Assembly (NCBI RefSeq): GCF_003991155.1
Contig: NZ_CP031293.1
Strand: one strand, 5' to 3'
Length of the DNA: 64,000 nucleotides
From: Escherichia coli
Lineage (GTDB): Bacteria > Pseudomonadota > Gammaproteobacteria > Enterobacterales > Enterobacteriaceae
Positions 1-33,762 of this stretch are shown here, piece after piece. Below the pieces are notes generated by a model. It worked only from the letters and a program-made list of their open reading frames with translations. It was not told the origin of the DNA and searched no databases. Numbering within the stretch: the stretch's first letter is position 1; every line of letters begins with the position of its first letter. The translations under genes were made by a program, and so were the position numbers.

Positions 1-567
1 AGCACTTTTTCTGATCCAAAGAACTAGTAAAACTGGTAACAGGCCTATAAAAAAAGAGTTTCTCCATCCATATACTTCAGCAAACTGAGGGATTATTTGT
101 GCCGCAATAATATTTCCAACAGAAAAACCACTTACCAAAAAAGCACTAGCTTTAGATTGAAGATTTTTAGGCCAACTTTCTACTGCATAAGTTGAAGCAC
201 ATGCATATTCACCAGACATCCCTAAGCCAACAATAAAACGGCAAACTGCGAGCATATATAAGTTTGTAGCAATACCGCTAAGGCCTGTTCCGACTGAGTA
301 AATGATAATTGCCCACATCATCATTGGCTTACGCCCATATTTATCAGCCATGGCACCAAAAAAACCGCCCCCAATAGGTCTGGCTATGAAGGCCACTGTC
401 CCTATTAAAGTGGCCTGAATATCCGTAATGCCAAGATCTGCTTTTATAATATGAAGAATGTAAAATATCATCATAAAATCAAAGCCATCAAATACATATC
501 CAAGCCATGCAGAAAAAAGAGCTTTCCGTTGTGGTGGATTAACTTGTTTATACCATACTGTTGCCAT
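1..567 (-). CDS. yjhB: MFS transporter, NanT paralogue (YjhB/NanX-like sialic acid family); N-terminal 189 codons only, gene runs off the window start
   Basis: Reverse-strand ORF starting ATG at 565-567 (MATVWYKQVNPPQRKALFSAWLGYVFDGFDFMMIF...); RBS AGGAAAC upstream; closely resembles the NanT/YjhB N-terminus; NanR operator upstream. Confidence 0.75.
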   Translation of the reverse strand, partial: MATVWYKQVNPPQRKALFSAWLGYVFDGFDFMMIFYILHIIKADLGITDIQATLIGTVAFIARPIGGGFFGAMADKYGRKPMMMWAIIIYSVGTGLSGIATNLYMLAVCRFIVGLGMSGEYACASTYAVESWPKNLQSKASAFLVSGFSVGNIIAAQIIPQFAEVYGWRNSFFIGLLPVLLVLWIRKSA

Positions 568-977
568 ATTTGTTTCCTGTGTTATTCTAATACAGCCCTT
601 AAAGTAAATATTAGGGAGCCTCAACAATATCCAGCAATAATTATATTGTCTTCAAATACGCCAGTACTATTAATTGTTATCAATACCTAATCAGTACAAT
701 CTTTTTCTCCATTTCTTCTTAACATATTTCACGCTATGAAAGATAAAACTGATACCCACCTTCAGTTTTGGGTCACCATCAAAAAAAATGTTCGCCAGAT
801 ATTCCACCACTGGCACAGTTCAACCCTGCTTCAAAAATTGACTTATTCATTGTGCTCATTTTCGTAGTCCGTTCAGGTTGAATAAAACTCCCTTAGTCAA
901 ATGAGGAAAGACTGAGAGGTTATTACTTTAGCTTACGTTATAGCTGTTTTCCTTTGCAGTATTTCTTTGCTTTTCTG

Positions 978-1000
978 TATACCTTTATACCTGTTATACC
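978..1000 (-). promoter_or_regulatory. NanR operator: three GGTATA repeats (GGTATAACAGGTATAAAGGTATA on the minus strand)
   Basis: Plus strand reads TATACCTTTATACCTGTTATACC, the exact reverse complement of the nan operator; lies about 410 bp upstream of the transporter start. Confidence 0.7.
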
Positions 1001-1596
1001 AGATCAAAAAACAAGCAATCCACATAACAAAACGCGTTTTGTTACTGATGTCACAAATTGAGCATATTTTTGTATCTGATAGTTTGTTACAAACACCACA
1101 ACCAAGATGCCTATTTCGTTTCAGCATCAACTGTTAAATTATCTGGTTGCCAACGAGAATACTGAGCTTTTTTGTCCCTAAGACTGACCGTCAACGCAAC
1201 AATCTTTGACTGTTTGACATTGTCATGCCCGCAGGCCAGCGGATCTAAAGACATCAGACTGCTTGCATCAGCCAGTTGCGTATCTGGCTATGTCCCTTAA
1301 TTGGTAAGGGTTCGAGGAACTCAACATTAACGCATTTTTCAGCGCATCACCGACAGTGTATATGAACGATTGCACTCTGACGATGGTTGATTTATTTGGT
1401 TGCATAGGGGCTAGCTAGTCTGGTACCGGAGGCTGGATCTGAAGTACTGACCCTAGGAATAACGCCGGGCTGACTCATATTCTGACCCATTGTCAGCCCG
1501 CGTGTTTACTGCTCTAGCTCATTTCCTGTTGTCAGGCATTCAATTCCCAACTGCAGGTTATGGCCCGGTGAGCGAACACCTGACGGCAGGTATCAC

Positions 1597-1770
1597 TCAC
1601 CCGGAGAAGGTAAATCCCTCAAGGGGCAGCAACTCTGCCAGTCGCTCCTCCGGCCACTCCGGCAGACGTGTCAGGACGTCTGTCAGCCAGGCATGTGGCT
1701 CCAGACCGTTGCGTTTCGCGGTTTCCAGCAAGCTCATTATTTGCGCAGCGCGTTCTCCCGCCATACGACA
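1597..1770 (-). pseudogene. IS66-family transposase (TnpC) C-terminal remnant
   Basis: Minus-strand translation ...AGERAAQIMSLLETAKRNGLEPHAWLTDVLTRLPEWPEERLAELLPLEGFTFSG* matches the TnpC C-terminus (compare the intact copy at 13952..15523); no upstream portion present. Confidence 0.6.
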
Positions 1771-1779
1771 GCCGTCAGA

Positions 1780-3642
1780 GCAGTGCGTCAGCGGGCGGCA
1801 GTTTTACCTGGGGTGCTGGCAGAGGTGGTTATGGCAGCGCCAGCCGCGATAATATCCACAGCAACTATGATTCCGTTAATGAGCAGAGCGGTATTTTCGC
1901 AGGCCGGGGTTATTTTGATATCACTGTGGGGAATCACACTCAGCTCGATGGTGCGGTGATTGCTTCGACAGCACCTGCCGACAGGAACTCGCTGGACACC
2001 GGTACTCTGGGCTGGTCGGATATCCATAACCAGGCAGACTATAAAGCCAGCTATACCGGAATCAGTTTATCGGGTGGCTCAGGGATGTCAGCCAGCCAGA
2101 TGGTGGCCTCAAATGCAATAGCCGGTGCGGCGAACGCACTTACCGGTATGTCCGGCAGCAGTGGACATGCTGAAGGTACCACGTCATCCGCCATCAGCGG
2201 CGGAAATCTCATTATCCGTGATAAGGAGAGTCAGAAGCAGGATATTGCCGGGCTCAGCCGGGACCCGGAAAACGCCAACGGCAGCATTGCACCGATATTT
2301 GACAAGGAGAAAGAACAGAAGCGTCTGCAGGAAGCGCAGGTTATCAGCCAGATTAGCGGTCAGATGAGTAATATCGTAATGACGTATGGCGAAACTGAAG
2401 CGATGAAAGCAGCCTGGAAAGAGCATCCTGGCATGAGCGATGCACAGTTGCGGGAGACTCCGGAATACAGAGAGGTCATGAAAGGCTACGGTACGGGCAG
2501 TTCGCCGCAGATGGTGGTACAGGCCATCACGGGCGTGCTGGGCGGACTGAATGCAGGGAACCCGGGGCAGGTATTGGCGGGCGGTCTGAATCCGGCAGTG
2601 GCACAGCTTATAAAACAGTCCACCGGCGATAACCGGGAAGCAAACCTGATGGCTCACGCAGTCTGGGGTGCACTTGCCGCACAACTGGGCGGAAACAATG
2701 CGGCTTCCGGTGCTGCTGGGGCATTCAGTGGTGAACTTGCAGCCTGGTATATCATTGATAACTACTACGGTGGTCGTACCGATAACCTGAGTGAACAGGA
2801 ACGTCAGCAAATCAGCATGCTGGCCACCATTGCCTCTGGTATTGCGGGGGGACTTGCAGGCAACAGTACGGCGTCTGCCGGTACGGGTGCACAGGCAGGA
2901 ACTCGGCTGAAAACAATATGCTGAACGTGATAGCCACTGAAACAGCAGCTAATACGGCAGCAGCAATAGCTGGTGCTACAGGTAATGCCAGTAAGGATAC
3001 CGGGAATGATAATAGCTGGGATACCGGTGGTGTTACGCTGGCTACGGGAACAGTGTGCTGTACGTGATCCGAGTCGCGATGGCACCCGAGGACCGGGGCA
3101 TGTGCTGAATGGCGACAATACAGACGGAAACAAACAGCCGAATCTGGGCAAAGACGTAGCGAGCGCAACGGATAAGGATAAAGCTGAGCTTGGTGGTGCA
3201 GGTGCTGGAATACCGGGGGGGATGGGGACCGGATAATGAAGAAAAAGCCCGTCATCAGGAGGTTCAGCAACAACGATTTGATGAACTGAGTAAAATATAT
3301 GATAAAAGTCACCCGGCCGGAGAGTTAACGGTGGATGGGCAGACTATCAGGCAGAGTTCGGTAAGTAACCGTTATGGTACGACGAAAGTGTTTGAAAGCC
3401 AGACTTTGACGGATAAACAGATCCACAATTACGCACAGCAACTGGCAGGCGATACACCGCTGAAAGAGGTAAAATCGGGAATCTACACGTCTAAACTATC
3501 AGATGGTTCGGTAATAACACTTAGAAACATATCTACATCAGAAGGTCAGACAGGCGCTCGTTGGACTATAGATATTCGTAATAACCAAAAGCTTACTGAA
3601 CTGGGGAATAAATATTCACGTGTGGAGATTAAGTTCAAATGA
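1780..3642 (+). pseudogene. cdiA: Orphan cdiA-CT module 1: 5-prime-truncated CdiA fragment with C-terminal toxin domain, interrupted by at least two frameshifts
   Basis: ORF 1668..2924 encodes a Gly/Ala-rich CdiA pretoxin region; (A)ENN motif at 2906..2917 is in a different frame; toxin ORF 3190..3642 in a third frame; homopolymer G7 at 3214..3220; left end abuts the IS66 remnant. Confidence 0.7.
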
Positions 3643-3995
3643 TTACTGAGTTAAGTGAAAGAGAATACAAGGAGTTGACAGACGCTGCAGAGGGACAGAC
3701 TCTTGATGCTATTTTGTGTTATTCAGTTCCTGATATTCACCCTGCAGAGTTTAGTTTTGCAGATAGAAGAGAAATCTTTTTTTGGGCATTAACCCGTCTT
3801 CTGAAAGAAGGGCGTATCAAACTCGCCAAGCACGGTAAGTTTTTGGAAGGAAGTGTTGACGAGCAGGTTGAGCGTTTTCGACAGGCATTTCCGAAAACAG
3901 AAGAAGAGATGGAAGACGGTATCTGGTTTTTTGATGAGAGTTGTCCGGGGGGGGCTGTTTGGGTGCTTGAAGATGGCTCTCTCGAATGGACCTGA
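3639..3995 (+). CDS. cdiI: CdiI-type immunity protein for module 1 (118 aa, intact)
   Basis: Start overlaps the toxin stop (ATGA at 3639-3642); small acidic AT-rich ORF immediately 3-prime of a CdiA-CT domain. Confidence 0.65.
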
Positions 3996-5112
3996 TAACC
4001 CCTTCACAGCGCAGGATGCGGCGCAGCGAGCGTATAACAACGATATGGCGGCCTCAGTTTTTGGTACCGGAGGGAACGATACAGGCTACAACGGCAGCGG
4101 TACAGGGACTGGCCGGCGGTAATCTGAGTGCAGCCCTGGCAGGTGGTGCAGCACCGTATCTGGCCGAAGTGGTGAAAACCATGACCACAGACCCGGTTAC
4201 CGGTGAGGTGAATAAGGCTGCAAATGTGGCTGCTCATGCCGTGGTGAATGCCGCACTGGCTGTGGCACAGGGAAATAACGCTCTTGCCGGTGCTGTAGGT
4301 GCAGCCACCGGCGAGGTGGTGGGAATGATAGCCACACAGATGTACGGTAAGCCGGTGAGTGAACTGAGCGAGACAGAGAAGCAGACGGTCTCGACACTGG
4401 CAACGGTTGCTGCTGGCCTGGCCGGTGGTCTGGTGGGCGACTCGGGGCTTCAGCGGTAGCCGGCGCACAGTCAGGTAAGACGACTGTTGAGAATAATTTA
4501 CTTGGCGGTAGTGAAGATGCTCAGGCTGCGTGGATACGCCAGCATGGTATCGACATGGCAACATGTGCAGAAAACCCTTCTGGTGCCGCCTGCCAGAAAG
4601 CAATGAATGAGAGGGATGCTGTAGGGCTGGCTCTGGCAACAGGTACAGTGGCACTACTCCCCGGTAGTGCTCAGGCTGTGTGGGGACTGGGAGCAAGTGC
4701 GAATGCTGGTATCAGTTATCTGGCTGATGGTACTGTAGATCCGACAAACGCAGCCATTGCAGGCTGGGTGAATGTGTTCAGCATGGGTAATGGCCTGGCG
4801 GGGACTGTGGGCTGGAATGCGGCAGGTGGTGCGCTGGGTAACTGGATTGACAACAAAGATCCTCTGTCTGGTGCAATTTCAAATGGTATCGGTTCTGCTG
4901 CCGGGTATGGTATCGGTAAAGGTATTACTTGGGGGACAGATAATATTACGAATGCTGTAGGAAAATGGGTGACAAATGGCTGGGATCCTAAGTACGATCC
5001 AACATGGATAAAATATGCTGAAGTAAATCGTAACGATATCATTCGAGAAGGCATGAAACCGAGCAATGTTCTTGGAACTGCTGGAGATATTGGCGGTTCT
5101 ATAGGATCCTAG
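3986..5112 (+). pseudogene. cdiA: Orphan cdiA-CT module 2: CdiA pretoxin fragment, VENN motif, Gly-rich C-terminal toxin domain; frameshifted; no immunity ORF downstream
   Basis: ORF 3986..4459 (..[10 protein letters not shown]..) then frame change; GKTTVENNLLGG at 4474..4506 (VENN 4486..4497) in frame with ORF 4555..5112; nothing coding in 5113..5230. Confidence 0.7.
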
Positions 5113-5230
5113 CTAGGTGGAAAAGTAACTTAGTCTGCAAGGATCAGGAGTTACAGACGGCATTGGCTTTACGCTTACCGTTTTTTTACGCGCCAGAACA
5201 AGACTATGATAGCGTTGCCCTTATAGACGA

Positions 5231-5644
5231 TCACATTATCGTCCACTCCGACTTTGCGCAACTACTGTAGAGTGGTGTACTCCGCGGCTTCTTTGAGGAT
5301 CTCAACTTCCATGTTTTTTTACCCAGCAAGGGCTGTAACTCTTTTATTTTTATAGCGGCAGCCAGTTCTGAGGCAGGAACAACATCCTCTCCGGTAGTAA
5401 CAGCAGCGAGACTTCCTTCCAGGTATTGTTTTTTCCACTTAAACAACAGACTGGGCTGAATACCATGCAAATGCGCCACATGGGACACCCTCATGCCAGG
5501 CTCCGTTGTCTGCTGAATAATGGCAATTTTTTCCTGAGGAGTTTTACGTTTACGAAGCTCCTGCCCCAGCAAAGTTCCAGTTATCTCAAAATTAGAACTA
5601 GTGTTAGACATATATCCAAGCCTATCTCTTATTTTAAGATACAT
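5231..5644 (-). mobile_element. IS transposase OrfA-like HTH protein (IS66/IS3-type accessory protein), solitary, with a frame change at an A7 run
   Basis: ..[78 protein letters not shown] then out of frame; a -1 shift at the A7 run (plus-strand T7 at 5315..5321) restores the conserved ending [16 protein letters not shown]; no cognate transposase ORF adjacent. Confidence 0.6.
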
Positions 5645-5671: not shown

Positions 5672-6049
5672 TCAAGTTTTTTCAGACAGTTGAACTAGTA
5701 TACCAATACATTCTTGTTCAGCATCAATGATACATGCTTGGTATGTCGGGAAAAAAACAGAGGTTTCTTTTACAATATATCCACAATCATAACATTGATA
5801 CCATTTCCAGCCTTTTTCCTGAATATAGGAAATATGTAGAAAAAGTGGCAAGACCGATTCGTCTGAGTATCCCTGTTTTTTAGCATTTTCAATGCATAAC
5901 AATTGCGAATTATATGCGTTATCTGATTGAGACAAAAGATATCCATTTTTCTCATGACAATACCATCTCCATTTATTGTCATCAGTCTTATAAAATTTCC
6001 ATATTAATCTCTGATTTCCAGATATCTTATAAATCATAATATACTCCAC
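5672..6049 (-). CDS. Hypothetical protein (125 aa), AT-rich; weak resemblance to DUF1508/YegP-type repeat
   Basis: Intact ORF; sequence KFYKTDDNKWRWYCHEKNGYLLSQSDNAYNSQLLCIENAKKQG loosely resembles the YegP-family motif; no function assignable. Confidence 0.4.
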   Translation of the reverse strand: MEYIMIYKISGNQRLIWKFYKTDDNKWRWYCHEKNGYLLSQSDNAYNSQLLCIENAKKQGYSDESVLPLFLHISYIQEKGWKWYQCYDCGYIVKETSVFFPTYQACIIDAEQECIGILVQLSEKT

Positions 6050-6079
6050 TCCCCAAGGAGACGGCCCTGGGGAAGGTAA

Positions 6080-7444
6080 TCAGTGTTCTTTTATATATGC
6101 GGCTCTGTGACGTTCAAGTTCAATTGCACCACGATGTGATAACCAGCAGAAAATGATGCAACAAATAATACCGCAGCCAAGAAGATAAAATCCGCCATGC
6201 CAGCCAATATGATCGACCATAATACCAAACAGGCTGGTGCCCAGAGACGCACCGAAGATATAGCTCATAAAACCGCGTAAGCCTACTGCAGAACCAACAG
6301 CAAAGCTGGGAACGATCTCCATAGTCTGAACGGAAGCCAGAAATTGTGGAACGTAAATCAGGCAACCAACAATGGCAGCAAAAATTGTCACCATAAACAG
6401 CGATTCACTTTTCCAGTAGCCAATCAGGCAAATGAAAATCAGCGCCATACAAATCATCGCCAATGGCATACGACGCCCTTTAAACAGTTTGTCTGACAAC
6501 CAACCGGCAAGTAGCGTGGAAGGGATTGCGGCCCATTCAAAAAATAAAAACGCGACGCTCATTTGTTCTTTAGAAAAATGTTTCACCGTCAGCAGATAAA
6601 TAGGCAACCAGCTAATCATCCCGAAGCGTACCATGTATACAAATACGTCAACCAGTGAGACATACCAGGCATTTTTATTGCGTAATACATAAGTGCAGAA
6701 AATCTGAAAGGCACTCATGTTTTCTGGTGCTTTTACCGTCTGTCGGGTATTCAGGACGACTTTTTCTTCCGGCATCATCTCTTCCAGAGAGGGTAGACCT
6801 TCCTGACGTGGGGAACCTTTACCGAGAATCAGCACAATTACCGCAAAAACGATGGCCACGCAGGCCGGAACGATATAGCTCGCACTTTGCCAGTGCTCGC
6901 TGCCGAGTAGGGCAAAAGCGGCACCAACAATGGGTGCAACAATACCACCACCGACGTTATGAGAGATATTCCAGAAAGCACCAACCCGACCACGCTCCCG
7001 GCGAGGGAACCAGTTAGCAATAGTGATGAAAGAAGGACCAACGCCCATTCCCTGGAAAAGACCATTCAGAATAACCAATACCGCAAAAATCCAGAATGCG
7101 GTGCTGAATCCCAGGCCAACGTTAACGATGGCACATAACACCAGCCCACACGCCATAAAGACTTTCGGACTGGCTTTATCGGCAAGGCTACTCATCACTC
7201 CTTTGCTGATACCATAGGCGATAAGCATACAGCTACTCAGTACGCCAATTTGTGTGGCGCTGAGATCTAATTGCTCTTTAAGATAAGGCGTCGATAAGGT
7301 GAAATTATTACGCACGATATAGTATGCAAGATACCCCAGAAATACACTAAGTAACGCCTGCATACGATAGCGACGATATGTCACCTGAATTTTCTCCGCC
7401 GGAACACTATCCGCCGCTTGCCCCGTTTTAAATATTGATAACAT
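6080..7444 (-). CDS. pgtP: Phosphoglycerate transporter PgtP (organophosphate:phosphate antiporter, UhpT/GlpT family)
   Basis: 454-aa ORF with 12-TM MFS features and close match to remembered Salmonella PgtP; divergent from pgtCBA. Confidence 0.85.
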   Translation of the reverse strand: MLSIFKTGQAADSVPAEKIQVTYRRYRMQALLSVFLGYLAYYIVRNNFTLSTPYLKEQLDLSATQIGVLSSCMLIAYGISKGVMSSLADKASPKVFMACGLVLCAIVNVGLGFSTAFWIFAVLVILNGLFQGMGVGPSFITIANWFPRRERGRVGAFWNISHNVGGGIVAPIVGAAFALLGSEHWQSASYIVPACVAIVFAVIVLILGKGSPRQEGLPSLEEMMPEEKVVLNTRQTVKAPENMSAFQIFCTYVLRNKNAWYVSLVDVFVYMVRFGMISWLPIYLLTVKHFSKEQMSVAFLFFEWAAIPSTLLAGWLSDKLFKGRRMPLAMICMALIFICLIGYWKSESLFMVTIFAAIVGCLIYVPQFLASVQTMEIVPSFAVGSAVGLRGFMSYIFGASLGTSLFGIMVDHIGWHGGFYLLGCGIICCIIFCWLSHRGAIELERHRAAYIKEH

Positions 7445-7535
7445 GTCTTCACCTGTATTTTATATTGATATGAACACTTGGAGTATTCTGACAATGAGAG
7501 TTATATAATTGAGATGAAACATCAAACTGAAAAAA

Positions 7536-7553
7536 TGTGTCACAATTGACACA
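7536..7553. promoter_or_regulatory. Perfect inverted repeat TGTGTCA-caat-TGACACA in the pgtP/pgtC divergent intergenic region (candidate operator)
   Basis: Read directly from sequence; 7-bp arms, 4-bp spacer. Confidence 0.3.
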
Positions 7554-7842
7554 AATTAATAAAATCAAAGCCTGTTTTTGACCCATTTTATTGATGCATA
7601 GACAGGGTAGATTTATGCTTTATCTGTTTTATTGTTAGCATGTGCGGATATTAACAAATCTCATGCTGATTATCGGGTAATCACTGATTAATATATTAAC
7701 GCTCTCTTTGAGCAGATGTGTTATCAGACGAAGTGTCTGAAACGGGTAATTTTTGTCTCAATGCGATTTTTGCGGTGTATTAATATTTATGACCTGGATC
7801 ACAAACCGATTTTTTAGCTGGTGCGAAATCGGCATCAAAACC

Positions 7843-9060
7843 ATGATTCTTTTACTGTTGTTGATGGATACCGGGGCCGTCAGGGCTCAACGAAATGAAC
7901 TGGTGATGGCCACCACATTCTCACCCGGAGCTACCGCGTGGATAATACAGCGCTGGCAAACAGAGCCTGAGTCGGTAATGATCCGTACGCTTAACCGCAC
8001 CAGTGCCTCACTGGAACAGTTGCTTGATACGGCCAACGTAGAAAACGTCGATCTGATCCTGACTTCATCACCAATGCTGCTCCAGCACCTTCAGGAGCAC
8101 CAGAAACTTGCCCCGTTTGATGATGCACCCGCAGAAAGCCAAAATCTGGTGCCGGAGTCGATCCGTGCAACCTCCGTTGCAGTAGCAATATCAGGTTTTG
8201 GTCTGCTCATTAATCGTCCGGCGCTTTCTGTAAAACACCTTCCTGCCCCTGCTGACTGGGACGATCTTGCTTTGCCGATCTATCAGGACGCTTTATTGAT
8301 GAGTAGTCCGTCGCGTTCAGATACTAACCATTTAATGGTTGAGTCATTACTACAGCAAAAAGGCTGGGTGAAAGGATGGGAAACGTTGCTGACAAGTGCA
8401 GGAAACCTGGTGACAATCTCCTCCCGCAGTTTTGGCGTAGCCGATAAAATAAAAAGCGGACTCGGCGTTGCCGGCCCCGTTATCGATAACTATGCTAATT
8501 TACTGTTAAATGACCCCCATCTCTCTTTTACCTATTTCCCCCGGTCTGCGGTATCTCCCACCTACGTTGCAATTCTCAAGAAAAGCCCACACGCCGATGC
8601 AGCCCGTCGCTTTATTCACTACCTGTTAAGTCCGAAAGGACAGCGTATTCTGGCCGATGCCAATACAGGAAAATATCCGGTGACACCACTTGCCGCAGAC
8701 AACCCGCGGGCAACGCAACAACAGCTCCTGATGAATCAACCCCCGCTGAATTATCACCTTATCCTGAAACGTCAGCGTCTGGTGCAGCGCTTGTTTGATA
8801 CGGCAATTAGCTTTCGGTTAGCACAGCTAAAAGATGCCTGGCGAGCGCTGCACAGTACCGAGGCACGCCTGAAGAAACCATTACCAGAAATACGTGCACT
8901 GTTAACACAAGTGCCCGTTGCAGCGGCCAGCAGTGAAGATCCCTTCTGGCTGGCACAGTTCGATAACAAAAGCTTTGCCGAGCAGCAAATGATGGAATGG
9001 CAACTCTGGTTTCTGAATAACCAGCGCCTGGCGATAAAAAAACTGGAAGAGCTGAAATGA
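7843..9060 (+). CDS. pgtC: PgtC, phosphoglycerate transport regulatory protein (periplasmic-binding-protein-like)
   Basis: ORF 7753..9060; likely start at internal Met 7843 before a signal-peptide-like segment (MILLLLLMDTGAVRA); stop overlaps pgtB start; start uncertain. Confidence 0.7.
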   Translation: MILLLLLMDTGAVRAQRNELVMATTFSPGATAWIIQRWQTEPESVMIRTLNRTSASLEQLLDTANVENVDLILTSSPMLLQHLQEHQKLAPFDDAPAESQNLVPESIRATSVAVAISGFGLLINRPALSVKHLPAPADWDDLALPIYQDALLMSSPSRSDTNHLMVESLLQQKGWVKGWETLLTSAGNLVTISSRSFGVADKIKSGLGVAGPVIDNYANLLLNDPHLSFTYFPRSAVSPTYVAILKKSPHADAARRFIHYLLSPKGQRILADANTGKYPVTPLAADNPRATQQQLLMNQPPLNYHLILKRQRLVQRLFDTAISFRLAQLKDAWRALHSTEARLKKPLPEIRALLTQVPVAAASSEDPFWLAQFDNKSFAEQQMMEWQLWFLNNQRLAIKKLEELK

Positions 9061-11066
9061 AAAACATAACGCTGTGGCAGCGTTTAAGACAGGTCAGTAT
9101 CAGTACCAGCTTACGTTGCGCATTTCTGATGGGGGCACTACTGACCCTGATTGTCAGTAGTGTCAGTCTGTATTCATGGCATGAACAAAGCTCACAAATT
9201 CGTTACTCGCTGGATGAGTATTTTCCCCGTATTCACTCTGCTTTCCTTATTGAAGGGAACCTGAATCTGGTGGTAGACCAGCTAAATGAATTTTTGCAGG
9301 CTCCCAACACCACGGTGCGATTGCAACTTCGTACCCAGATTATTCAGCATCTCGACACCATAGAACGGCTTAGTCGGGGGCTGTCATCCCGGGAACGCCA
9401 ACAACTGACGGTCATTTTGCAGGACAGTCGATCACTGTTATCCGAGTTGGATCGTGCGCTTTACAACATGTTTTTACTACGGGAAAAGGTGAGTGAGCTA
9501 TCAGCGAGGATTGACTGGTTACACGATGATTTTACTACCGAGCTTAATTCTTTAGTGCAGGATTTCACCTGGCAGCAGGGAACGCTGCTGGATCAAATCG
9601 CCTCCCGACAGGGCGATACGGCGCAATACCTGAAGCGATCTCGTGAAGTGCAAAATGAACAGCAGCAGGTTTATACCCTGGCACGCATTGAAAATCAGAT
9701 TGTTGACGATCTGCGTGACAGACTCAATGAACTCAAATCAGGACGTGATGACGACACACAGGTGGAAACTCATCTCCGTTATTTTGAAAATCTGAAAAAA
9801 ACGGCAGATGAAAATATACGTATGCTGGATGACTGGCCTGGCACCATTACCCTGAGGCAGACTATCGATGAATTGCTGGATATGGGAATCGTAAAAAACA
9901 AAATGCCGGATACGATGCGTGAATATGTCGCCGCCCAAAAAGCCTTAGAGGATGCCAGTCGCACCAGGGAAGCGACACTGGGTCTCTTCAGAACGTTACT
10001 GGAAGCGCAGCTTGGCAGTACTCATCAACAAATGCAGATGTTTAATCAACGAATGGAACAAATTGTTCGCGTTAGCGGTGGGCTGATCCTAGTGGCGACA
10101 GCACTGGCGTTACTGCTGGCATGGGTATTCAACCATTATTTTATCCGCTCACGGTTGGTGAAACGCTTTACCCTACTGAATCAGGCCGTTGTGCAAATTG
10201 GTCTGGGAGGCACGGAAACGACTATTCCTGTTTATGGGAATGATGAACTGGGGAGAATTGCAGGATTATTACGCCATACTCTCGGGCAGCTCAATGTGCA
10301 AAAACAGCAACTTGAACAAGAAATTACCGATCGAAAGGTGATAGAAGCCGATCTGCGTGCCGCCCAGGACGAACTGATTCAGACAGCGAAGTTGGCGGTA
10401 GTCGGGCAAACGATGACCACGCTGGCCCACGAGATCAATCAGCCGCTAAATGCGCTGTCGATGTATCTGTTTACAGCCCGCAGGGCCATTGAACAGACCC
10501 AGATAGAACAGGCCTGCATGATGCTTGGTAAAGCCGAAGGGGTGATTAGTCGCATTGACGCCATTATCCGTTCACTACGGCAGTTTACCCGGCGCGCCGA
10601 ACTGGAAATATCACTCCATGCCATTGATTTAGCAAAGATGTTCAGTGCGGCCTGGGAACTTCTGGCCATGCGTCATCGCCCTTTGCAAGCTACGCTTGTT
10701 CTGCCACAAGGTACAGCCACAGTTTCAGGCGATGAGGTCAGAACCCAGCAGGTACTGGTTAACGTACTGGCGAATGCGCTTGATGTTTGTGGGCAAGGCG
10801 CTGTCATTACCGTTAACTGGCAAATGCAGGGTAAAACGCTGAACGTATTCATTGGCGATAATGGCCCGGGCTGGCCTGAGGCATTGTTGCCTTCGTTATT
10901 GAAGCCGTTTACCACCAGTAAAGAAATAGGACTGGGTATTGGTCTTTCAATTTGTGTGTCGTTAATGGAGCAAATGAAAGGGGAATTACGGCTGGCATCA
11001 ACGATGACCAGGAATGCCTGTGTGGTACTGCAATTCAGACTAACGGATGTGGAAGATGCTAAGTAG
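9057..11066 (+). CDS. pgtB: PgtB sensor histidine kinase
   Basis: 669-aa ORF with N-terminal TM/sensor region, H-box (LAHEINQPLNAL) and ATPase G-boxes (GDNGPGW, GLGIGLS); 4-bp overlap with pgtC. Confidence 0.85.
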   Translation: MKNITLWQRLRQVSISTSLRCAFLMGALLTLIVSSVSLYSWHEQSSQIRYSLDEYFPRIHSAFLIEGNLNLVVDQLNEFLQAPNTTVRLQLRTQIIQHLDTIERLSRGLSSRERQQLTVILQDSRSLLSELDRALYNMFLLREKVSELSARIDWLHDDFTTELNSLVQDFTWQQGTLLDQIASRQGDTAQYLKRSREVQNEQQQVYTLARIENQIVDDLRDRLNELKSGRDDDTQVETHLRYFENLKKTADENIRMLDDWPGTITLRQTIDELLDMGIVKNKMPDTMREYVAAQKALEDASRTREATLGLFRTLLEAQLGSTHQQMQMFNQRMEQIVRVSGGLILVATALALLLAWVFNHYFIRSRLVKRFTLLNQAVVQIGLGGTETTIPVYGNDELGRIAGLLRHTLGQLNVQKQQLEQEITDRKVIEADLRAAQDELIQTAKLAVVGQTMTTLAHEINQPLNALSMYLFTARRAIEQTQIEQACMMLGKAEGVISRIDAIIRSLRQFTRRAELEISLHAIDLAKMFSAAWELLAMRHRPLQATLVLPQGTATVSGDEVRTQQVLVNVLANALDVCGQGAVITVNWQMQGKTLNVFIGDNGPGWPEALLPSLLKPFTTSKEIGLGIGLSICVSLMEQMKGELRLASTMTRNACVVLQFRLTDVEDAK

Positions 11067-12303
11067 TGAATATTCGATTCTGCTGATTGATGATGATGCA
11101 GATGTGCTGGACGCCTACACACAGTTACTTGAACAGTCAGGCTATCGGGTTTTTGCCTGTAACAATCCTTTTGAGGCGCAGGCGTGGATACAACCAGACT
11201 GGCCAGGCATTGTGCTAAGTGATGTGTGTATGCCTGGCTGCTCTGGTATCGATTTGATGATGTTATTCCACCAGGATGATCAACAGATCCCCATTCTGCT
11301 TATCACCGGGCACGGCGACGTGCCAATGGCAGTTGATGCGGTAAAAAAAGGCGCGTGGGATTTTTTGCAAAAACCGGTTGATCCCGGCAAATTGCTTTCT
11401 CTGGTTGAAGAGGCGCTACGCCAGCGTCAATCAATCATTGCGCGTCGTCAGTATTGCCAACAGACATTGCAGGTGGAGTTGATAGGGAGAAGTGAATGGA
11501 TAAATCAGTATCGGCGACGTTTACAGCAGTTGTCTGAGACAGATATTGCCGTCTGGCTCTACGGTGCCCCTGGCACAGGACGGATGACCGGTGCACGTTA
11601 TCTGCACCAATTTGGACGTAATGCACAAGGCGAATTTGTCTACCGCGAGCTGACACCAGACAATGCACCACAGCTTAATGATTTCATTGCGCTGGCTCAG
11701 GGGGGAACATTAGTGCTCAGCCATCCTGAACACCTGACGCGTGAACAGCAGTACCATCTGGTTCAGTTACAAAGCCAGGAACACAGACCTTTTCGCCTGA
11801 TTGGTATTGGAGACACCTCGCTGGTCGAGCTGGCCGCCAGCAACCATATCATCGCGGAGCTCTATTACTGCTTTGCAATGACACAAATCGCTTGCCTGCC
11901 ATTAACTCAACGCCCCGACGATATTGAACCACTGTTTCGCCACTACCTTTGTAAGGCATGTCAACGGCTTAACCATCCTGTTCCGGAAGTGGGAAAAGAG
12001 ATGCTCAAAGAGATGATGCGCCGCATGTGGCCAAATAATGTGCGAGAGCTGGCCAATGCAGCAGAACTGTTTACTGTAGGAATATTACCGCTGGCAGAAA
12101 CAGCAAACCCGTTGATGCACGTCGGAACCCCGGCACCGCTTGACAGGCGAGTGGAGGACGCTGAGCGACAGATAATCACAGAGGCGCTTAATATCCATCA
12201 GGGGCGTATCAATGAGGTTGCTGAATATTTACAAATCCCACGGAAAAAACTCTATCTCAGAATGAAAAAATACGGTCTTAGTAAGGAGCATTATAAAATT
12301 TAA
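11047..12303 (+). CDS. pgtA: PgtA, NtrC-family (sigma-54-dependent type) response regulator
   Basis: Receiver domain (LLIDDD...D), AAA+ central domain (GAPGTGR), C-terminal HTH; overlaps pgtB by 20 nt. Confidence 0.85.
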   Translation: MWKMLSSEYSILLIDDDADVLDAYTQLLEQSGYRVFACNNPFEAQAWIQPDWPGIVLSDVCMPGCSGIDLMMLFHQDDQQIPILLITGHGDVPMAVDAVKKGAWDFLQKPVDPGKLLSLVEEALRQRQSIIARRQYCQQTLQVELIGRSEWINQYRRRLQQLSETDIAVWLYGAPGTGRMTGARYLHQFGRNAQGEFVYRELTPDNAPQLNDFIALAQGGTLVLSHPEHLTREQQYHLVQLQSQEHRPFRLIGIGDTSLVELAASNHIIAELYYCFAMTQIACLPLTQRPDDIEPLFRHYLCKACQRLNHPVPEVGKEMLKEMMRRMWPNNVRELANAAELFTVGILPLAETANPLMHVGTPAPLDRRVEDAERQIITEALNIHQGRINEVAEYLQIPRKKLYLRMKKYGLSKEHYKI

Positions 12304-12324: not shown

Positions 12325-12552
12325 TCATAATGTTATGTCATTTGTGTGATTCATAGACATCGTTTCAATTTTCTCAGCAAGTTCAAAGTAGTGTTCCATC
12401 GGAGTTTTACCGTTGTGAGCGCTATGAGGACGTTCCCAGTTATAGTAATGCTGCCATTCTGCCAGCAGTTCCTTCAGGTCATCAGCAGAAAGATCTACGG
12501 TAGCGTAAAACTCAGCTTTGTTCACGATCACCAACATCGTAAATGGCTCCAC
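12325..12552 (-). pseudogene. Transposase C-terminal fragment (rve/integrase-core type, IS3-like)
   Basis: 75-aa ORF containing ...HYYNWERPHSAHNGKTPMEHY..., the conserved C-terminal motif of DDE integrase-core transposases; no N-terminal part. Confidence 0.55.
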
Positions 12553-12854
12553 CTCGATACCTGCCAGTTCATGAGATTAGTCGAATCCGATGTTCCCCGC
12601 GTTATGTGCCCGAAGCGTTGTTGCCAGCCCCTGCCTGTAGCATGGACTGGTCCGGCAGCCGGTACTCGCTGCTGTTCGAATTGTTCGTGCTCTCATGGCT
12701 AAAAATCAGCACCGTTGATGCCGTCAGGAAACAACTTAAAATTAGCTGGAATGCCGTTGACGGCATTATGACTCGTGTGGTTAAGCGCGGTCTGTCCCGG
12801 ATGAAAAAGCCTTTATTAGCACGTCATATGAATGTAGACGAAGTCGCCTTTAAA
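12543..12854 (+). pseudogene. Transposase N-terminal fragment (family uncertain) disrupted by the IS66-family insertion
   Basis: ORF 12543..12908 runs into the IS66 left inverted repeat; after removing the IS the frame ends ...DEVAFKKV*. Confidence 0.4.
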
Positions 12855-12907
12855 GTAAGCGCCTCATCTGAACCGTCTGGTCTGTTTCCTCCGGCTCCAC
12901 AAAAATA

Positions 12908-13585
12908 ATGTCCATCATTTTTAATGGACACTATCGTATGGAATACCGGACCTGGATCACCGAAGCTTTACGTCTTCACTTTGAAGAACATTTACCACGG
13001 ATTGTGGCCGGACGTCGCCTGGGCGTACCAAAATCAACAGTTTGTGGTATGTTCGTGCGCTTCCGCAAAGCTGGCCTTTCATGGCCTCTGCCCGCAGGTA
13101 TGTCGGAGCGGGAACTTGATGCCCGTCTTTACGGGAGTGCCTCCACAGTACCTGTCGTACTTACTGAAAACACCGTTATGTCCGAAGTCCCGGTGGTAAA
13201 AAAACGTCCCCGGCGGCCTAATTTTCCTTATGAGTTTAAAATCGCCTTAGTGGAGCAGTCACTGCAGCCCGGAGCCTGTGTGGCGCAGATCGCCCGTGAA
13301 AACGGAATCAACGATAACCTGCTCTTCAACTGGCGCCATCAATACCGGAAAGGTGGCCTGCTGCCTTCCGGAAAAAATATGCCTGCACTGCTTCCCGTGA
13401 CGTTAACGCCGGAGCCGGATAATAAAATCCCGGCTCCGGCACAGGAACCAGAGCAGATAAATACACCGTCCGACAGTCTGTGCTGTGAGCTGGTTCTGCC
13501 GGCCGGAACTCTCAGGCTGAAAGGTGAACTGACACCGGCGTTATTACAGACACTTATCCGCGAAATGAAAGGGAGCAGCCACTGA
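12908..13585 (+). CDS. tnpA: IS66-family accessory protein TnpA (ORF as tracked; true start may be internal)
   Basis: Contains ..FPYEFKIALVEQSLQPGACVAQIARENGINDNLLFNWRHQYRKGG.. typical of IS66 OrfA. Confidence 0.7.
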   Translation: MSIIFNGHYRMEYRTWITEALRLHFEEHLPRIVAGRRLGVPKSTVCGMFVRFRKAGLSWPLPAGMSERELDARLYGSASTVPVVLTENTVMSEVPVVKKRPRRPNFPYEFKIALVEQSLQPGACVAQIARENGINDNLLFNWRHQYRKGGLLPSGKNMPALLPVTLTPEPDNKIPAPAQEPEQINTPSDSLCCELVLPAGTLRLKGELTPALLQTLIREMKGSSH

Positions 13586-13932
13586 TGATATCTCTCCCTG
13601 CAGGTTCGCGTATCTGGCTGGTTGCCGGTATCACCGACATGCGAAATGGCTTTAACGGCCTGGCCTCAAAAGTTCAGAACGTCCTGAAGGATGACCCGTT
13701 CTCCGGACACCTGTTCATCTTCCGCGGACGCCGGGGTGACCAGATAAAAGTGTTGTGGGCTGACAGCGACGGACTGTGCCTCTTCACCAAACGCCTGGAG
13801 CGGGGCCGCTTCGTCTGGCCGGTCACCCGTGACGGCAAGGTGCACCTTACTCCGGCCCAGTTATCCATGCTTCTTGAGGGCATCGACTGGAAACATCCAA
13901 AACGAACGGAACGCACTGGCATCCGCATATAA
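13585..13932 (+). CDS. tnpB: IS66-family TnpB
   Basis: MISLPAGSRIWLVAGITDMRNGFNGLA... is the canonical IS66 OrfB start; ATGA overlap with tnpA. Confidence 0.85.
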   Translation: MISLPAGSRIWLVAGITDMRNGFNGLASKVQNVLKDDPFSGHLFIFRGRRGDQIKVLWADSDGLCLFTKRLERGRFVWPVTRDGKVHLTPAQLSMLLEGIDWKHPKRTERTGIRI

Positions 13933-13951
13933 CCCGTTGTAAAGTGAGGAT

Positions 13952-15523: not shown

Positions 15524-15873
15524 ATATCAATACGGTTCTGACGAGCCGCTTACCCTTTAAAAAGGTATAGGTATATAACAGTAATATCTGATCGTAACGG
15601 ACGGACGCTGGAATTAACCGATGACCGCAGCACAGAGAGTAGGGGATGCGGACGGTCAAAGATCGCGGCGTTGGATTTTATAAATCTGTCTCCAGTAGTA
15701 GATGAACTGAATACAAAGTTGCCAGAGAGTGGTCTGTCAGGCAGGGAATCAGAAACTGGATATTATTGACTGGTACATTGTGTCGGGCTGTGTACGTTCT
15801 CCCCGGACAGACAGTCTCAGTTCGTAGAATCTATAAATTACTGCTACTGATGCTGCCGGGGAAAGGCGTAACG

Positions 15874-17872: not shown

Positions 17873-18460
17873 ATGAAGAATTTTTGTGTTCTGTTTGTGA
17901 TGTATTTCTGGAGTACATTACTTCATGCTGTATCTTCAGAGCCATTTCCTCCGCCCGGCATGTCCCTTCCTGAATACTGGGGAGAAGAACACGTATGGTG
18001 GGATGGCAGGGCTACTTTTCATGGTGAGGTTGTCAGACCTGCCTGTACTCTGGCGATGGAAGACGCCTGGCAGATTATTGATATGGGGGAAACCCCGGTA
18101 CGGGATTTACAGAATGGTTTCTCCGGACCTGAAAGAAAATTCAGCCTCCGGCTCAGGAATTGTGAATTTAACAGTCAGGGTGGGAACCTTTTCTCTGATT
18201 CCCGGATAAGGGTGACTTTCGATGGCGTCCGGGGTGAAACGCCGGATAAGTTTAATTTATCCGGTCAGGCAAAAGGAATTAATCTGCAGATAGCTGATGC
18301 CAGGGGAAATATTGCCCGGGCAGGGAAAGTAATGCCTGCAATACCATTGACGGGTAATGAAGAAGCGCTGGATTACACCCTCAGAATTGTGAGAAACGGA
18401 AAAAAACTTGAAGCCGGAAATTATTTTGCTGTGCTGGGATTCCGGGTCGATTATGAGTGA
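17873..18460 (+). CDS. papH: PapH pilus terminator/anchor subunit
   Basis: 195-aa ORF matching PapH (..PFPPPGMSLPEYWGEEHVWWDGRA..). Confidence 0.9.
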   Translation: MKNFCVLFVMYFWSTLLHAVSSEPFPPPGMSLPEYWGEEHVWWDGRATFHGEVVRPACTLAMEDAWQIIDMGETPVRDLQNGFSGPERKFSLRLRNCEFNSQGGNLFSDSRIRVTFDGVRGETPDKFNLSGQAKGINLQIADARGNIARAGKVMPAIPLTGNEEALDYTLRIVRNGKKLEAGNYFAVLGFRVDYE

Positions 18461-18518
18461 GTCACTCCGGTGAGATGTCCGGTTATTTATCTTTTTTGTG
18501 AATCTGGTGATGCGTGGA

Positions 18519-28950: not shown

Positions 28951-28959
28951 ACAGAAATA

Positions 28960-30924: not shown

Positions 30925-31998
30925 CTACTGATACTGTATGCCAGTATGTTTCATGCCTGCCGCTGAAAACGGCAATATCCAGGGCCAGACATATTCACCA
31001 TTCATATTTCTGCATTTCTGTACAATTTTCTCAGAAAGCGTCTCATCAATTCTTTCACGCAACTTCTCCTGCTGTCTTAAAATACTTTCGCATATTTCGA
31101 AATCATCTTCCTGCATCAGCATTTCGGCGCATTTAATGATTTCTGCCCGTTCATGCAGCACAGAGGAATGATTATAGAGCCAGTTTACAAACAGCAATGC
31201 TTCCGGATATTGCCCCCATAACGGGTGGTATGTGGCATAATAATCTTCGGCAGTATCCGGACCGCCTGAAAAGTTATGCCATACAGCAAGTGGAAATGGA
31301 TGCAGATTTCCGCACAGTATTTCTGCGATGTAAGTATTTGCCGCAAAGCCGCGACGAAATGCAGTTGCAGCTTTTACCAGTTCCCCATTAAGAAAATGCA
31401 GAAGGCCGAGTTCATACCAGTAAGGTGAAAATTCATCTGCATGTTCCTGCAGTATATGGCGTGCCTGTTCATGAGCGCCAGTGCGTAACAGTTCCGGTCC
31501 CAGTAGCCAGCGTGCACCATGATTATCTTCGGGATTGTAATCCAGTATTTTTTCAATGAGCATGATGGCATCCTGATGACGCCGTAAATGTGCATTTGCC
31601 AGGATTGCCGCATAGAGGGCACGAAGAAAAGGTCGGTTGTCAGGATGTATCCAGATGATTCTGCCACTGAAACCTTCAGGGATAAGACGATTGCCAACTG
31701 CCAGTCCTTTAAGGGCAGCATTCAGCGCCTTACGCGGGGCATTCTGCTCCAGAAATACGTATGCCAAGTGAGCGTGTACATCAATAAAGTCATTCTCCTG
31801 TCGGGCAAGGCGCCTGAGTTTGTTGATGTAACTTGTTTCGCTGATTTCATCCGCATCGTATGCATCAATCAGTTCTTCAAACTCATCCAGCAACGAGCCA
31901 AACCAGGTTTCCGGAAATATGAAACAGCCCTGGTTATCGTTCACTTCAAAGCGTAATTTGCCAGTCATATTCTGAACCTGTAAAAAAGGATGGACCAT
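30925..31998 (-). CDS. Hypothetical protein (357 aa), predicted all-helical/TPR-like; start may be Met 31968
   Basis: Long intact ORF adjacent to the integrase; no family recognised. Confidence 0.5.
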   Translation of the reverse strand: MVHPFLQVQNMTGKLRFEVNDNQGCFIFPETWFGSLLDEFEELIDAYDADEISETSYINKLRRLARQENDFIDVHAHLAYVFLEQNAPRKALNAALKGLAVGNRLIPEGFSGRIIWIHPDNRPFLRALYAAILANAHLRRHQDAIMLIEKILDYNPEDNHGARWLLGPELLRTGAHEQARHILQEHADEFSPYWYELGLLHFLNGELVKAATAFRRGFAANTYIAEILCGNLHPFPLAVWHNFSGGPDTAEDYYATYHPLWGQYPEALLFVNWLYNHSSVLHERAEIIKCAEMLMQEDDFEICESILRQQEKLRERIDETLSEKIVQKCRNMNGEYVWPWILPFSAAGMKHTGIQYQ

Positions 31999-32223
31999 AA
32001 TCTGCAGGCTATAAAAATTGTGATGCCTGGCATCGGTGTCCTTTTATTGTCCGGGATTAACGTTGCCCATGATAATACAGTGAATCCTGTTCTGTGGTAA
32101 GACGTTGAGTTATTGAATGAGAACCTCAGCCTGGCTGATGGTTCCGCCGGCATAAAAAAGAAATTGATTGAGGCGGGTGCTCTTCCCCTTAAGAGGAAGA
32201 GCATGTGTGTAAATGGTGTTCAG

Positions 32224-33489
32224 TCACCTTTTCAGTGGATTGTTAACTTTTGCATATTCAAACGGACTGATACCCTTATCTCTGTTTGCATCCAGAAAAT
32301 CTGCCCACCATTGCAGCATAAGCCGACGTTCTTCCAGATGTTCTGCTTTATGAATATACGCGGCACGTACTCCGTTGCGCTCCTGATGACTCATCTGACG
32401 TTCAACCGCATCTCTTGACCATAAACCGGATTCAATCAATGCACTGCACGCCATCGCCCGGAATCCATGGCCACAGACTTCCTTGGTTGTGTCATACCCC
32501 ATCACTCTGAGGGCCTTATTTACGGTATTTTCACTGATTGGTTTACGCGGGTCATGTGCTCCCGTAAAGATCAGACCATTTTCACCAGCCCATGTCTGAA
32601 GTTCTGTCAGTATGGCTACAGCCTGTTTGCTGAGTGGCACAAGATGTGGTGTTCGCATCTTGGAGCCCCGGTGTGAGAATTTTACCCCTGGCAGAGGTTT
32701 GCGTTCGGCTGGAATAGTCCACATGGCATTGTCAATATCAATTTCAGACCAGCGGGCGTATCTGAGTTCACTGGAACGAATAAAAACCAGTAAATTCAGC
32801 ATAACGGCAAGCCGGGTGACAGGCTGACCTTTATAACTGTTAATACGCGACAGAAGTTCAGGCAGACGTGAAAGATCAAGAGCGGGGCGATGCTGGCGTT
32901 TTACCGTAGTCAATGCGCCAGCCATATCCAGAGCAGGATTATATCTGATGATGCCAGACTGTACGGCATAACGCATTACGGCAGATATTCTTTGCTGCAG
33001 ACGACTGGCGATTTCATAAATTTGTTTAGCTTCTGCAGCACGAACAGGGATAAGCAGATCCGGGGTATTGAGTGTTGTGATATCCCGGTTGCCGATAAAG
33101 GGGAAAACGTGTGTTTCGAGGCTTTTGAGTACTTTATCGCTGTGTGATTGTGCCCATTGTTTATTACTGGCATGCCAGCGTCGTGCAATATGTTCAAAAG
33201 AGAGCTGTAAATCAGGGACTACTTTTTTAGCTCTTTTCTGTTCGCAAGGGTCAATCCCCTCCGAAATCAGTTTTCGGGCCTCATCCCGTTTTGTACGAGC
33301 TTCGGAGAGAGAAACTTCTGGATACACACCAAGTGCCAGAGTCTTCTCCTTACCCAGAATACGATAACGGAGACGCCAGTAACGGGAACCATTAGGATGT
33401 ACCAGCAGGAACATGCCAGCCCCGTCAGTGAGTTTATAAGCCTTGTCAGTGGGCTTTGCAGCCCGGATTTTTGCGTCAGTCAGTGCCAT
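32224..33489 (-). CDS. P4-type (CP4-57-like) tyrosine integrase
   Basis: 421-aa ORF MALTDAKIRAAKPTDKAYKLTDGAGMFLLVHPNGSRYWRLRYR... with C-terminal catalytic region; immediately downstream of tRNA-Phe in the same orientation. Confidence 0.92.
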   Translation of the reverse strand: MALTDAKIRAAKPTDKAYKLTDGAGMFLLVHPNGSRYWRLRYRILGKEKTLALGVYPEVSLSEARTKRDEARKLISEGIDPCEQKRAKKVVPDLQLSFEHIARRWHASNKQWAQSHSDKVLKSLETHVFPFIGNRDITTLNTPDLLIPVRAAEAKQIYEIASRLQQRISAVMRYAVQSGIIRYNPALDMAGALTTVKRQHRPALDLSRLPELLSRINSYKGQPVTRLAVMLNLLVFIRSSELRYARWSEIDIDNAMWTIPAERKPLPGVKFSHRGSKMRTPHLVPLSKQAVAILTELQTWAGENGLIFTGAHDPRKPISENTVNKALRVMGYDTTKEVCGHGFRAMACSALIESGLWSRDAVERQMSHQERNGVRAAYIHKAEHLEERRLMLQWWADFLDANRDKGISPFEYAKVNNPLKR

Positions 33490-33652
33490 AGTTCAGCCTT
33501 CTGAATGCGTTAAAGAGGGTACAAATTCTGTCGAACTGGGGTATACCCGCAATTATACCCACACAATGGGGTTGATGTGGGGGGAATCTGGTTGAGTTCG
33601 GTAGAATTGATTTGTAGGCAGAACGCTTAAATCGTGGTGTTCTGAAACGAAA

Positions 33653-33680
33653 AACGGACCTCCGTGGAGGTCCGTTTATA
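33653..33680 (-). terminator. Intrinsic terminator just 3-prime of tRNA-Phe
   Basis: Minus-strand CGGACCTCC-acg-GAGGTCCG hairpin followed by TTTTT. Confidence 0.6.
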
Positions 33681-33686
33681 TGAATT

Positions 33687-33762
33687 TGGTGCCCGGACTC
33701 GGAATCGAACCAAGGACACGGGGATTTTCAATCCCCTGCTCTACCGACTGAGCTATCCGGGC
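33687..33762 (-). tRNA. pheV: tRNA-Phe (GAA anticodon), 76 nt including CCA
   Basis: Reverse complement reads GCCCGGATAGCTCAGTCGGTAGAGCAGGGGATTGAAAATCCCCGTGTCCTTGGTTCGATTCCGAGTCCGGGCACCA; locus assigned as pheV from flanking yqgA/speC. Confidence 0.95.

Follow-up and report, generated by a model that had tools for sequence, protein, structure and literature searches.

The 64,000-nt stretch of Escherichia coli contig NZ_CP031293.1 analyzed here (the window) carries a tRNA-Phe gene with conserved chromosomal genes on one side and, on the other, adhesin, transport, toxin/immunity and insertion sequence (IS) modules (pap, pgt, orphan fragments of a contact-dependent inhibition (cdi) locus, nanX, an IS66 element and IS remnants). 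What is this second region, and how was it put together? A first-pass annotation, made from the letters of the sequence, had read it as a pathogenicity island with mosaic cargo at the tRNA-Phe gene pheV. The analysis presented here supports that reading with high confidence: the region very probably belongs to GI-pheV, the genomic (pathogenicity) island common in phylogroup B2 extraintestinal pathogenic E. coli (ExPEC), in the version found in sequence types (ST) 127 and 969.

The insertion site is unambiguous. ARAGORN found a single tRNA gene in the window, tRNA-Phe(GAA), in agreement with Rfam (68.3 bits). It is flanked by yqgA, yqgH, speC, nupG, mltC, yggX and mutY, arranged and oriented as in K-12 MG1655, and BLAST gave 97.8% identity to K-12 over 6.45 kb from yqgA to mutY. 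These flanks and the K-12 gene order identify the tRNA gene as pheV; the alternative that it might be pheU was discarded, since the neighbors are yqgA/speC and not yjdC/cadC. Homology to K-12 ended at position 33679, 8 nt past the tRNA, and in MG1655, where the site is unoccupied, yghD follows 148 bp after pheV. Because yghD lies so close to pheV in MG1655, positions 1-33678 of the window must all be accessory DNA at pheV. The base composition differs as well, with 47.1% G+C in the island part, 51.7% in the core part and a range of 42.5% to 55.4% among island modules. Integration at pheV, the accessory nature of everything left of the tRNA and the return of core synteny at yqgA/speC, as the first-pass annotation had it, are thus borne out.

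The left boundary had been expected to lie outside the window, and it does. Sequence to the left was read in E. coli FDAARGOS_1284 (NZ_CP070170.1, where the window starts at position 756751), which differs from the window by 2 mismatches in 64,000 nt and served as its proxy; here the boundary is ~46 kb further left. It is marked by the direct repeat of the tRNA-Phe 3′ end that had been proposed as a check. Using blastn-short, a 17-nt exact core of the tRNA 3′ end was found in the same orientation at NZ_CP070170.1 710743-710759, within an attR of sequence TTCGATTCCGAGTCCGG-CACCA (710738-710759) that is oriented as the tRNA end and corresponds to the last 23 nt of pheV minus one base. A search left of the window for the 24-nt tRNA 3′ end pattern, allowing up to 3 mismatches, gave no match, because attR carries this 1-nt deletion. 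Directly after attR come 48 nt of K-12 pheV-downstream sequence including the terminator hairpin, and attR together with this sequence matches over 71 nt at 95.8%. The native K-12 pheV terminator has therefore been displaced by ~79.7 kb and now follows attR (NZ_CP070170.1 710691-710737). Next to pheV itself, a hairpin with T-run borne by the island is a predicted terminator that may replace the displaced one. The arrangement of attL, attR and displaced terminator is what site-specific integration into a tRNA 3′ end classically leaves behind. In addition, this attR is letter-identical to the 23-bp(-1) attR published for 536, APEC O1, S88, ED1a and others (PMC11537424, Table 1).

With the 5′ base of the tRNA and the end of attR as its limits, the island spans 79,775 bp (~79.7 kb), and positions 1-33686 of the window are its integrase-proximal 42%. 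It combines pheV next to yqgA, an adjacent intP4, an attR and an empty site in K-12, the features by which Nhu et al. (2024; PMC11537424) define GI-pheV. The marks of a classical pathogenicity island (PAI) in the sense of Hacker are also present, namely the tRNA, the pap/Ag43/cdiBAI cargo, integrase and IS genes, direct repeats and deviant G+C.

A P4-type integrase directly downstream of the tRNA had been claimed, and an intact one is present, its open reading frame (ORF) beginning 198 nt beyond the tRNA 3′ end. The translation contains the Pfam domains Arm-DNA-bind_3, Phage_int_M and Phage_integrase, matches the integrase family phrog_1 (8.5e-64) and shows motifs expected in tyrosine recombinases (RSSEL, HGFR and AAY). 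It was compared with the alleles of CFT073, 536, APEC O1, 55989 and Sakai. The closest was intP4.1 of CFT073 (97.9% nucleotide and 98.1% amino acid identity), with 94.4% nucleotide identity to 536, 94.7% to APEC O1 and 94.3-94.7% overall when 55989 and Sakai are included. Divergence inside an intP4 allele is reported to be below 1% (PMC11537424), and the 2.1% seen against intP4.1 exceeds this limit. The gene is also mildly mosaic: its 3′ third (nt 1051-1266) is CFT073-like, with 5 mismatches vs. 31-37 to the other alleles, and nt 451-600 show 0 mismatches to the Sakai allele and 6 to that of CFT073.

An intact integrase raises the question of whether the element moves by itself. Going left from the window in FDAARGOS_1284, one meets nanX/nanY, then IS remnants and a complete cdiB-cdiA-cdiI locus (its CdiA carries a tRNA nuclease annotation), and next genes for a LacI regulator and the phosphotransferase system (PTS). 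Further left are a fucP/rbsK/DeoR sugar module and genes for a YfjI-like helicase (phrog_2373), an AlpA-like protein that is an excisionase candidate (phrog_66, 9e-10) and an inovirus Gp2-like protein; the distal end consists of Ag43 and then a CP4-44-like yee/cbtA block up to attR. A P4-type integrase accompanied by an AlpA-like excisionase candidate, a YfjI-like helicase, and inovirus Gp2-like and CP4-44-like genes is what one could also expect of a self-mobile integrative and conjugative element or of an intact P4-like satellite prophage. On the other hand, the annotation of the 79.7 kb, which is the only source here, lists no relaxase, type IV secretion or other conjugation gene and no capsid-size or primase/replication set; IS remnants and pseudogenes are numerous, and attR is imperfect. 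With no conjugation or structural genes annotated, both forms of this explanation were rejected as extremely improbable.

Beyond attR, an IS110 remnant and a kps capsule locus of group 2 (~16 kb) precede yghD/gsp/sslE/glc. This locus lies outside the repeat-bounded island as an accessory segment in its own right and, together with a CFT073-like integrase-proximal end and a 536-like attR end, it might suggest that at least two elements integrated in tandem at pheV instead of one island accreting modules. Against such a history, ~125 kb of sequence yielded a single integrase and a single attR-like repeat (blastn-short with word size 7 returned no further copy of the tRNA 3′ end), and the module junctions fall at IS remnants or repeats and not at att sites. 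We regard tandem integration as very improbable, and a single island that accreted modules as the better account. The kps locus (NZ_CP070170.1 695632-709548, between attR and yghD) comprises kpsMT, then a region 2 that holds galE and genes for a LipB/KpsS-family protein and a CatB-like O-acetyltransferase, and finally kpsSCUDEF. Beside the island region, the gspC-M cluster for type II secretion (T2SS-beta) is complete (NZ_CP070170.1 684115-694576); K-12 retains only yghD/yghE/yghF/yghG and has an internal deletion, across which K-12 homology jumps from record position 693074 to 685073.

The cargo inside the window is itemized in Table 1, and its mosaic nature, another point of the first-pass annotation, is confirmed by pieces of about 98% identity that match 536, APEC O1 and CFT073 module by module.

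Table 1. Features of the window, from the cut left edge to the first core gene beyond pheV.
Feature	Position	Strand	Basis
nanX (yjhB-like major facilitator superfamily transporter), 5′ part, cut by window edge	1..567	-	annotation of near-identical genome
Orphan cdiA-CT/cdiI module 1	1668..3995	+	Pfam PT-VENN (6.9e-12), translations, annotation
Orphan cdiA-CT module 2	4000..5112	+	three-frame translation, pseudogene annotation
Transposase remnant including one copy of the 169-bp direct repeat (5182-5349)	5182..5584	-	self-BLAST
pgt module: hypothetical gene (5672-6037, -), pgtP (6080-7444, -), pgtC-pgtB-pgtA (7843-12303, +)	5672..12303		annotation
IS/integrase-core remnants at the pgt-pap module junction	12370..12854		pseudogene annotation
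IS66-family element (tnpA, tnpB, tnpC), 2,699 bp	12855..15553	+	direct reading; empty site in Rb-3
papI (16102-16335, -), papB-A-H-C-D-J-K-E-F-G (class III), papX	16102..25990	+	annotation, all intact
CobW-like GTP-binding protein pseudogene	26475..26821	-	RefSeq annotation of near-identical genome
Tia/Hek-like outer-membrane beta-barrel protein	28141..28881	+	annotation; NCBIfam "adhesin Adr" 1.5e-27, below cut-off
Phosphoethanolamine-transferase-family protein, putative, intact, 500 aa	29063..30565	+	NCBIfam CptA/EptA/MCR-family
Conserved hypothetical protein, annotated as tetratricopeptide repeat (TPR) protein in other genomes	30925..31968	-	annotation; weak TPR match in NCBIfam
P4-type tyrosine integrase (intP4), intact, 421 aa	32224..33489	-	Pfam, phrog_1, motifs
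Island-borne hairpin and T-run, cggacctccacggaggtccgttttt	33652..33677	-	sequence reading and inverted self-match
pheV, tRNA-Phe(GAA); last 23 nt (33687-33709) = attL	33687..33762	-	ARAGORN, Rfam, yqgA/speC flank
yqgA, core gene nearest to pheV on the conserved flank	33868..34575	-	annotation; 97.8% identity to K-12

The P-fimbrial operon comes in two parts of different affinity. From papI to papF it is 98.2% identical to the APEC O1 operon (window 16060-24199), and papG (24169-25176) diverges from it, being 99.7-99.8% identical to the class III papG of UTI89 and Rb-3. Both differences between the window and FDAARGOS_1284 (positions 24485 and 24652) fall in papG; they are nonsynonymous, lie in the lectin domain of PapG-III and are reciprocal private changes. 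Codon 106 encodes R in the window, in line with the consensus of UTI89, Rb-3 and ECONIH2, and K in FDAARGOS_1284 alone; codon 162 encodes N in the window alone and D in all others compared. The exact papG of the window was found in no complete genome. These differences could represent either very recent micro-evolution of the adhesin or sequencing error.

Between the pgt and pap modules lies the clearest trace of recent change. The IS66 element is bounded by terminal inverted repeats GTAAGCG and by a perfect 8-bp target-site duplication, CCTTTAAA, at 12847-12854 and 15554-15561. In Rb-3 the site is empty and the matches of the two flanks overlap by 8 bp, and most of the ~20 sister genomes lack the element and match the query as two pieces with 89% coverage. 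The empty site in Rb-3 and in most sister genomes indicates that IS66 inserted recently between the two modules. The junction itself holds IS and integrase-core remnants, and the matches to 536 and to APEC O1 both break off at 12313-12342. Between the right end of IS66 and papI, Rfam also reported a match to AS-pc02 (RF02876, "antisense to pHK01_099") at 15773-15949(-), above the gathering score at 53.2 bits, which suggests a plasmid-derived fragment at the module junction.

On the other side of the pgt module, the transposase remnant holds one copy of a 169-bp direct repeat. Self-BLAST placed its partner ~20.7 kb left of the window (NZ_CP070170.1 ~735964-736132) at 91.1% identity, and the pair brackets a block of 25.8 kb that includes the PTS genes, LacI, cdiBAI, nanY/nanX and the orphan cdi modules. 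In 536 there is a single copy of the repeat, and the fucP and pgt modules are adjacent. A bracketed block here and a single copy in 536 point to IS-mediated gain or loss of the 25.8 kb.

The two cdi pieces in this block are true orphans, as the first-pass annotation had stated; the complete cdiBAI locus, though, lies just left of the window. Both are VENN fragments without a cdiA N-terminus, situated downstream of cdiBAI and co-oriented with it. Orphan 1 comprises a PT-VENN pretoxin fragment, a frameshift at its AENN motif (2906) and a toxin-like remnant of 149 aa (3193-3642); the DUF596 ORF behind it (3639-3995) is intact and is probably the immunity gene. The nucleotide identity of this orphan to the pretoxin region of the resident cdiA is only 64%. 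In orphan 2, a frameshifted pretoxin with VENN at 4486 is joined to a glycine-rich C-terminal domain (4486-5112), which resembles a membrane-active toxin, and translation revealed no immunity ORF between it and the transposase remnant. Neither toxin domain had a match among PDB sequences, NCBIfam or PADLOC. Redeployment of the orphans by recombination with the resident cdiA was considered and judged unlikely, given 64-70% nucleotide identity and the frameshifts.

Toward the integrase, a junk region of low G+C (42.5%, 25991-28140) containing the CobW-like pseudogene separates papX from a group of integrase-proximal genes. The TPR-like protein is 99.4% identical at the amino acid level to the integrase neighbor in CFT073 and had no PADLOC match. 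The putative phosphoethanolamine (PEA) transferase matches the CptA/EptA/MCR models of NCBIfam weakly, far below their curated cut-offs, and a copy with ~91% nucleotide identity is found at ~4.49 Mb in K-12-type genomes. Its gene and that of the Tia/Hek-like outer-membrane protein (OMP) adjoin near the integrase. The hypothetical genes at 27555-27923 and 5672-6037 had no family match in NCBIfam or PADLOC.

The first-pass annotation had hinted that this combination of modules matches no single known island gene for gene, which the comparisons do not support. Among complete genomes, about 20 match window positions 1-25000 over 89% or more of their length, collinear and at 98.4% identity or more; in most of these genomes the missing 11% is IS66. 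In the same genomes the left-hand cdi/PTS block directly abuts the window part, again collinear, and 69 genomes cover positions 20000-40000, spanning the pheV junction. The sequence type was looked up for five of the ~20 sister genomes (ECONIH2, K-15KW01, Combat2C1, FDAARGOS_1256 and FDAARGOS_1257), and all five are ST127 (PMC11537424, S1 table). FDAARGOS_1284 is ST969; these six genomes are all phylogroup B2 and all GI-pheV positive according to the same table, so that the closest genome had itself been counted in the 2024 survey. The combination is already known in the literature too, where pap+pgt and pix+pgt GI-pheV (PMC11537424) and pheV islands with cdi orphans (PMC4927057) have been published. 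Strain 536 is likewise ST127 (PMC11537424), which makes PAI V536 a shorter sibling of the window island.

A plausible history can be proposed from the anatomy of the island. A P4/CP4-like integrative element would have entered pheV through its tyrosine integrase, by recombination of attP with the last 23 nt of pheV, thereby regenerating the tRNA 3′ end as attL and placing an imperfect attR, with pheV's own terminator, at the distant end. Phage functions would later have been lost, and cargo gained by IS activity and by homologous recombination among tRNA-Phe islands. The proximal modules would thus have come to be a CFT073-like integrase-TPR-PEA-transferase end and an APEC O1-like pap operon with class III papG. 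The middle would hold a 536/APEC O1-like pgt module and the repeat-bracketed PTS-cdiBAI-nanXY-orphan block as well as the recent IS66 insertion, and the distal part would be a 536-like backbone of fucP/rbsK, Ag43 and yee (CP4-44-like) genes. The island thus appears to be a patchwork of modules circulating among tRNA-Phe islands and joined at IS remnants. Its intact integrase, AlpA-like candidate and two att sites would permit excision at most, and transfer would presumably require a helper element. From family membership, the cargo is predicted to serve adhesion by P fimbriae with a class III PapG, PgtABC-controlled uptake of phosphoglycerate, contact-dependent inhibition, uptake of sialic acid derivatives and sugars, and Ag43 autoaggregation.

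Several points weigh against this interpretation, or at least against its details. attR and the left 46 kb were taken from a near-identical genome and not from the window's own. The integrase is ~2% away from intP4.1, and assignment to that allele is therefore unclean. The 1-nt deletion in attR may lower the frequency of excision, as discussed in PMC11537424. The comparisons fit more than one order and direction of module gains and losses, and integration, excision, fimbriation and transport are activities predicted from sequence. A more ambitious proposal would join two claims, that the island is a recombinant (an intP4.1-like end, 536/APEC O1 cargo and a 23-bp(-1) attR) and that PapG-III has recently been selected for receptor binding; we hold this joint claim only tentatively and consider it rather unlikely. 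Its second half rests on the idea that the PapG-III changes could be very recent selection on receptor binding instead of sequencing error. If true, the recombinant would break the reported association between integrase type and cargo, to which published exceptions exist (PMC11537424), and its integrase may be mismatched with its attR.

The GI-pheV described here, from an E. coli of uropathogenic type, is real but ordinary and catalogued, and each of its elements has been described before. The main value of the analysis is in bookkeeping: the region can be labeled with confidence as GI-pheV of ST127-complex ExPEC, its boundaries being exact and its modules mapped. It is also a textbook case of a tRNA-linked island that evolves by module exchange, in which three reference islands each contribute a 98%-identical piece, the IS66 insertion can be dated against sister genomes and a 25.8 kb block is bracketed by IS-derived repeats. 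It raises no new question. Two modest leads may be worth following, a surface-modification role of the PEA transferase and the OMP, and the effect of the PapG-III substitutions on receptor binding.

It remains to place the island among those already named. GI-pheV is modular, with intP4 as its sole conserved gene and an attR of 23-bp or 19-bp type (Nhu et al., 2024; PMC11537424), and the pheV PAIs of 536, CFT073, APEC O1 and others are listed in a review (PMC7545054). The published coordinates (Table 1 of Nhu et al., 2024) were used for the comparison with the islands of 536, APEC O1 and CFT073. For cdi, pheV islands are known on which displaced orphan toxin/immunity modules accompany the cdi locus with transposases in between (Ruhe et al., 2016; PMC4927057). 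Like these (see also Poole et al., 2011; PMC3150448), the window island has a full cdiBAI followed by co-oriented VENN toxin/immunity fragments among transposase remnants. It differs from them in that cdiI and the orphans have nanY/nanX and IS remnants between them, and in that both orphan toxins are frameshifted and only 64-70% identical in nucleotides to the resident cdiA pretoxin region.

PAI V536 (536_GI-pheV; Schneider, 2004; PMC11537424), which carries pix and pgtABCP (PMC11537424), shares with the window island its insertion site, an identical attR, and the IS110 remnant and kps locus beyond it. pgtABCP is 98.5% identical and the fucP/rbsK/DeoR module 98%, and the distal backbone of Ag43 and yee (CP4-44-like) genes is collinear at 87-92%. 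However, 536 has pix fimbriae in place of pap, with usher and chaperone genes at 67-74% nucleotide identity, and its integrase is a different allele. It also lacks the 25.8 kb PTS-cdiBAI-nanXY-orphan block and the OMP, PEA-transferase and TPR genes, and measures 48.8 kb as opposed to 79.7 kb. The window island is therefore not of the 536 type, despite the shared pgt module. PAI V536 is reported to excise (Hochhut, 2006, as cited in the review PMC7545054).

Islands with intP4.3, as in APEC O1 (PAI I APEC-O1) and S88, carry pap+pgt(+tia, ireA, ibr) (PMC11537424). They resemble the window island in having pap and pgt on one pheV island and the same attR; in APEC O1, besides papI-papF, the pgt module (98.1%) and the PEA transferase (97% at the amino acid level) are close. 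APEC O1, in contrast, has papG-II where the window island has papG-III, and it also carries tia, ireA, ibr and a large gene with an AAA domain; its pgt and pap modules are ordered and oriented differently relative to each other, and it has no cdi block. With an integrase at 94.7%, ireA and ibr absent, and an OMP that is 63.7% identical in amino acids to the APEC O1 protein annotated as Tia, the window island falls outside this type as well.

The intP4.1 islands (PAI I CFT073; CFT073 and EC958) provide the closest integrase, and in CFT073 the integrase-TPR-PEA-transferase end is collinear at 97.8% over 4.2 kb. There the PEA-transferase gene is truncated beside an IS66, whereas the window copy is intact, and attR is of the 19-bp type (TTTCATTCCGATTCCGGGCACCA) instead of the 23-bp(-1) found here. 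Of the CFT073 cargo (hly, sat, iha, iuc/iutA), none is annotated in the window island, which accordingly departs from the 19-bp attR and sat/iha/iuc/flu cargo of intP4.1_GI-pheV. The window island thus combines an intP4.1-like integrase, an attR of the 536/APEC O1 type and mixed cargo, and fits no single type of the 2024 scheme cleanly.

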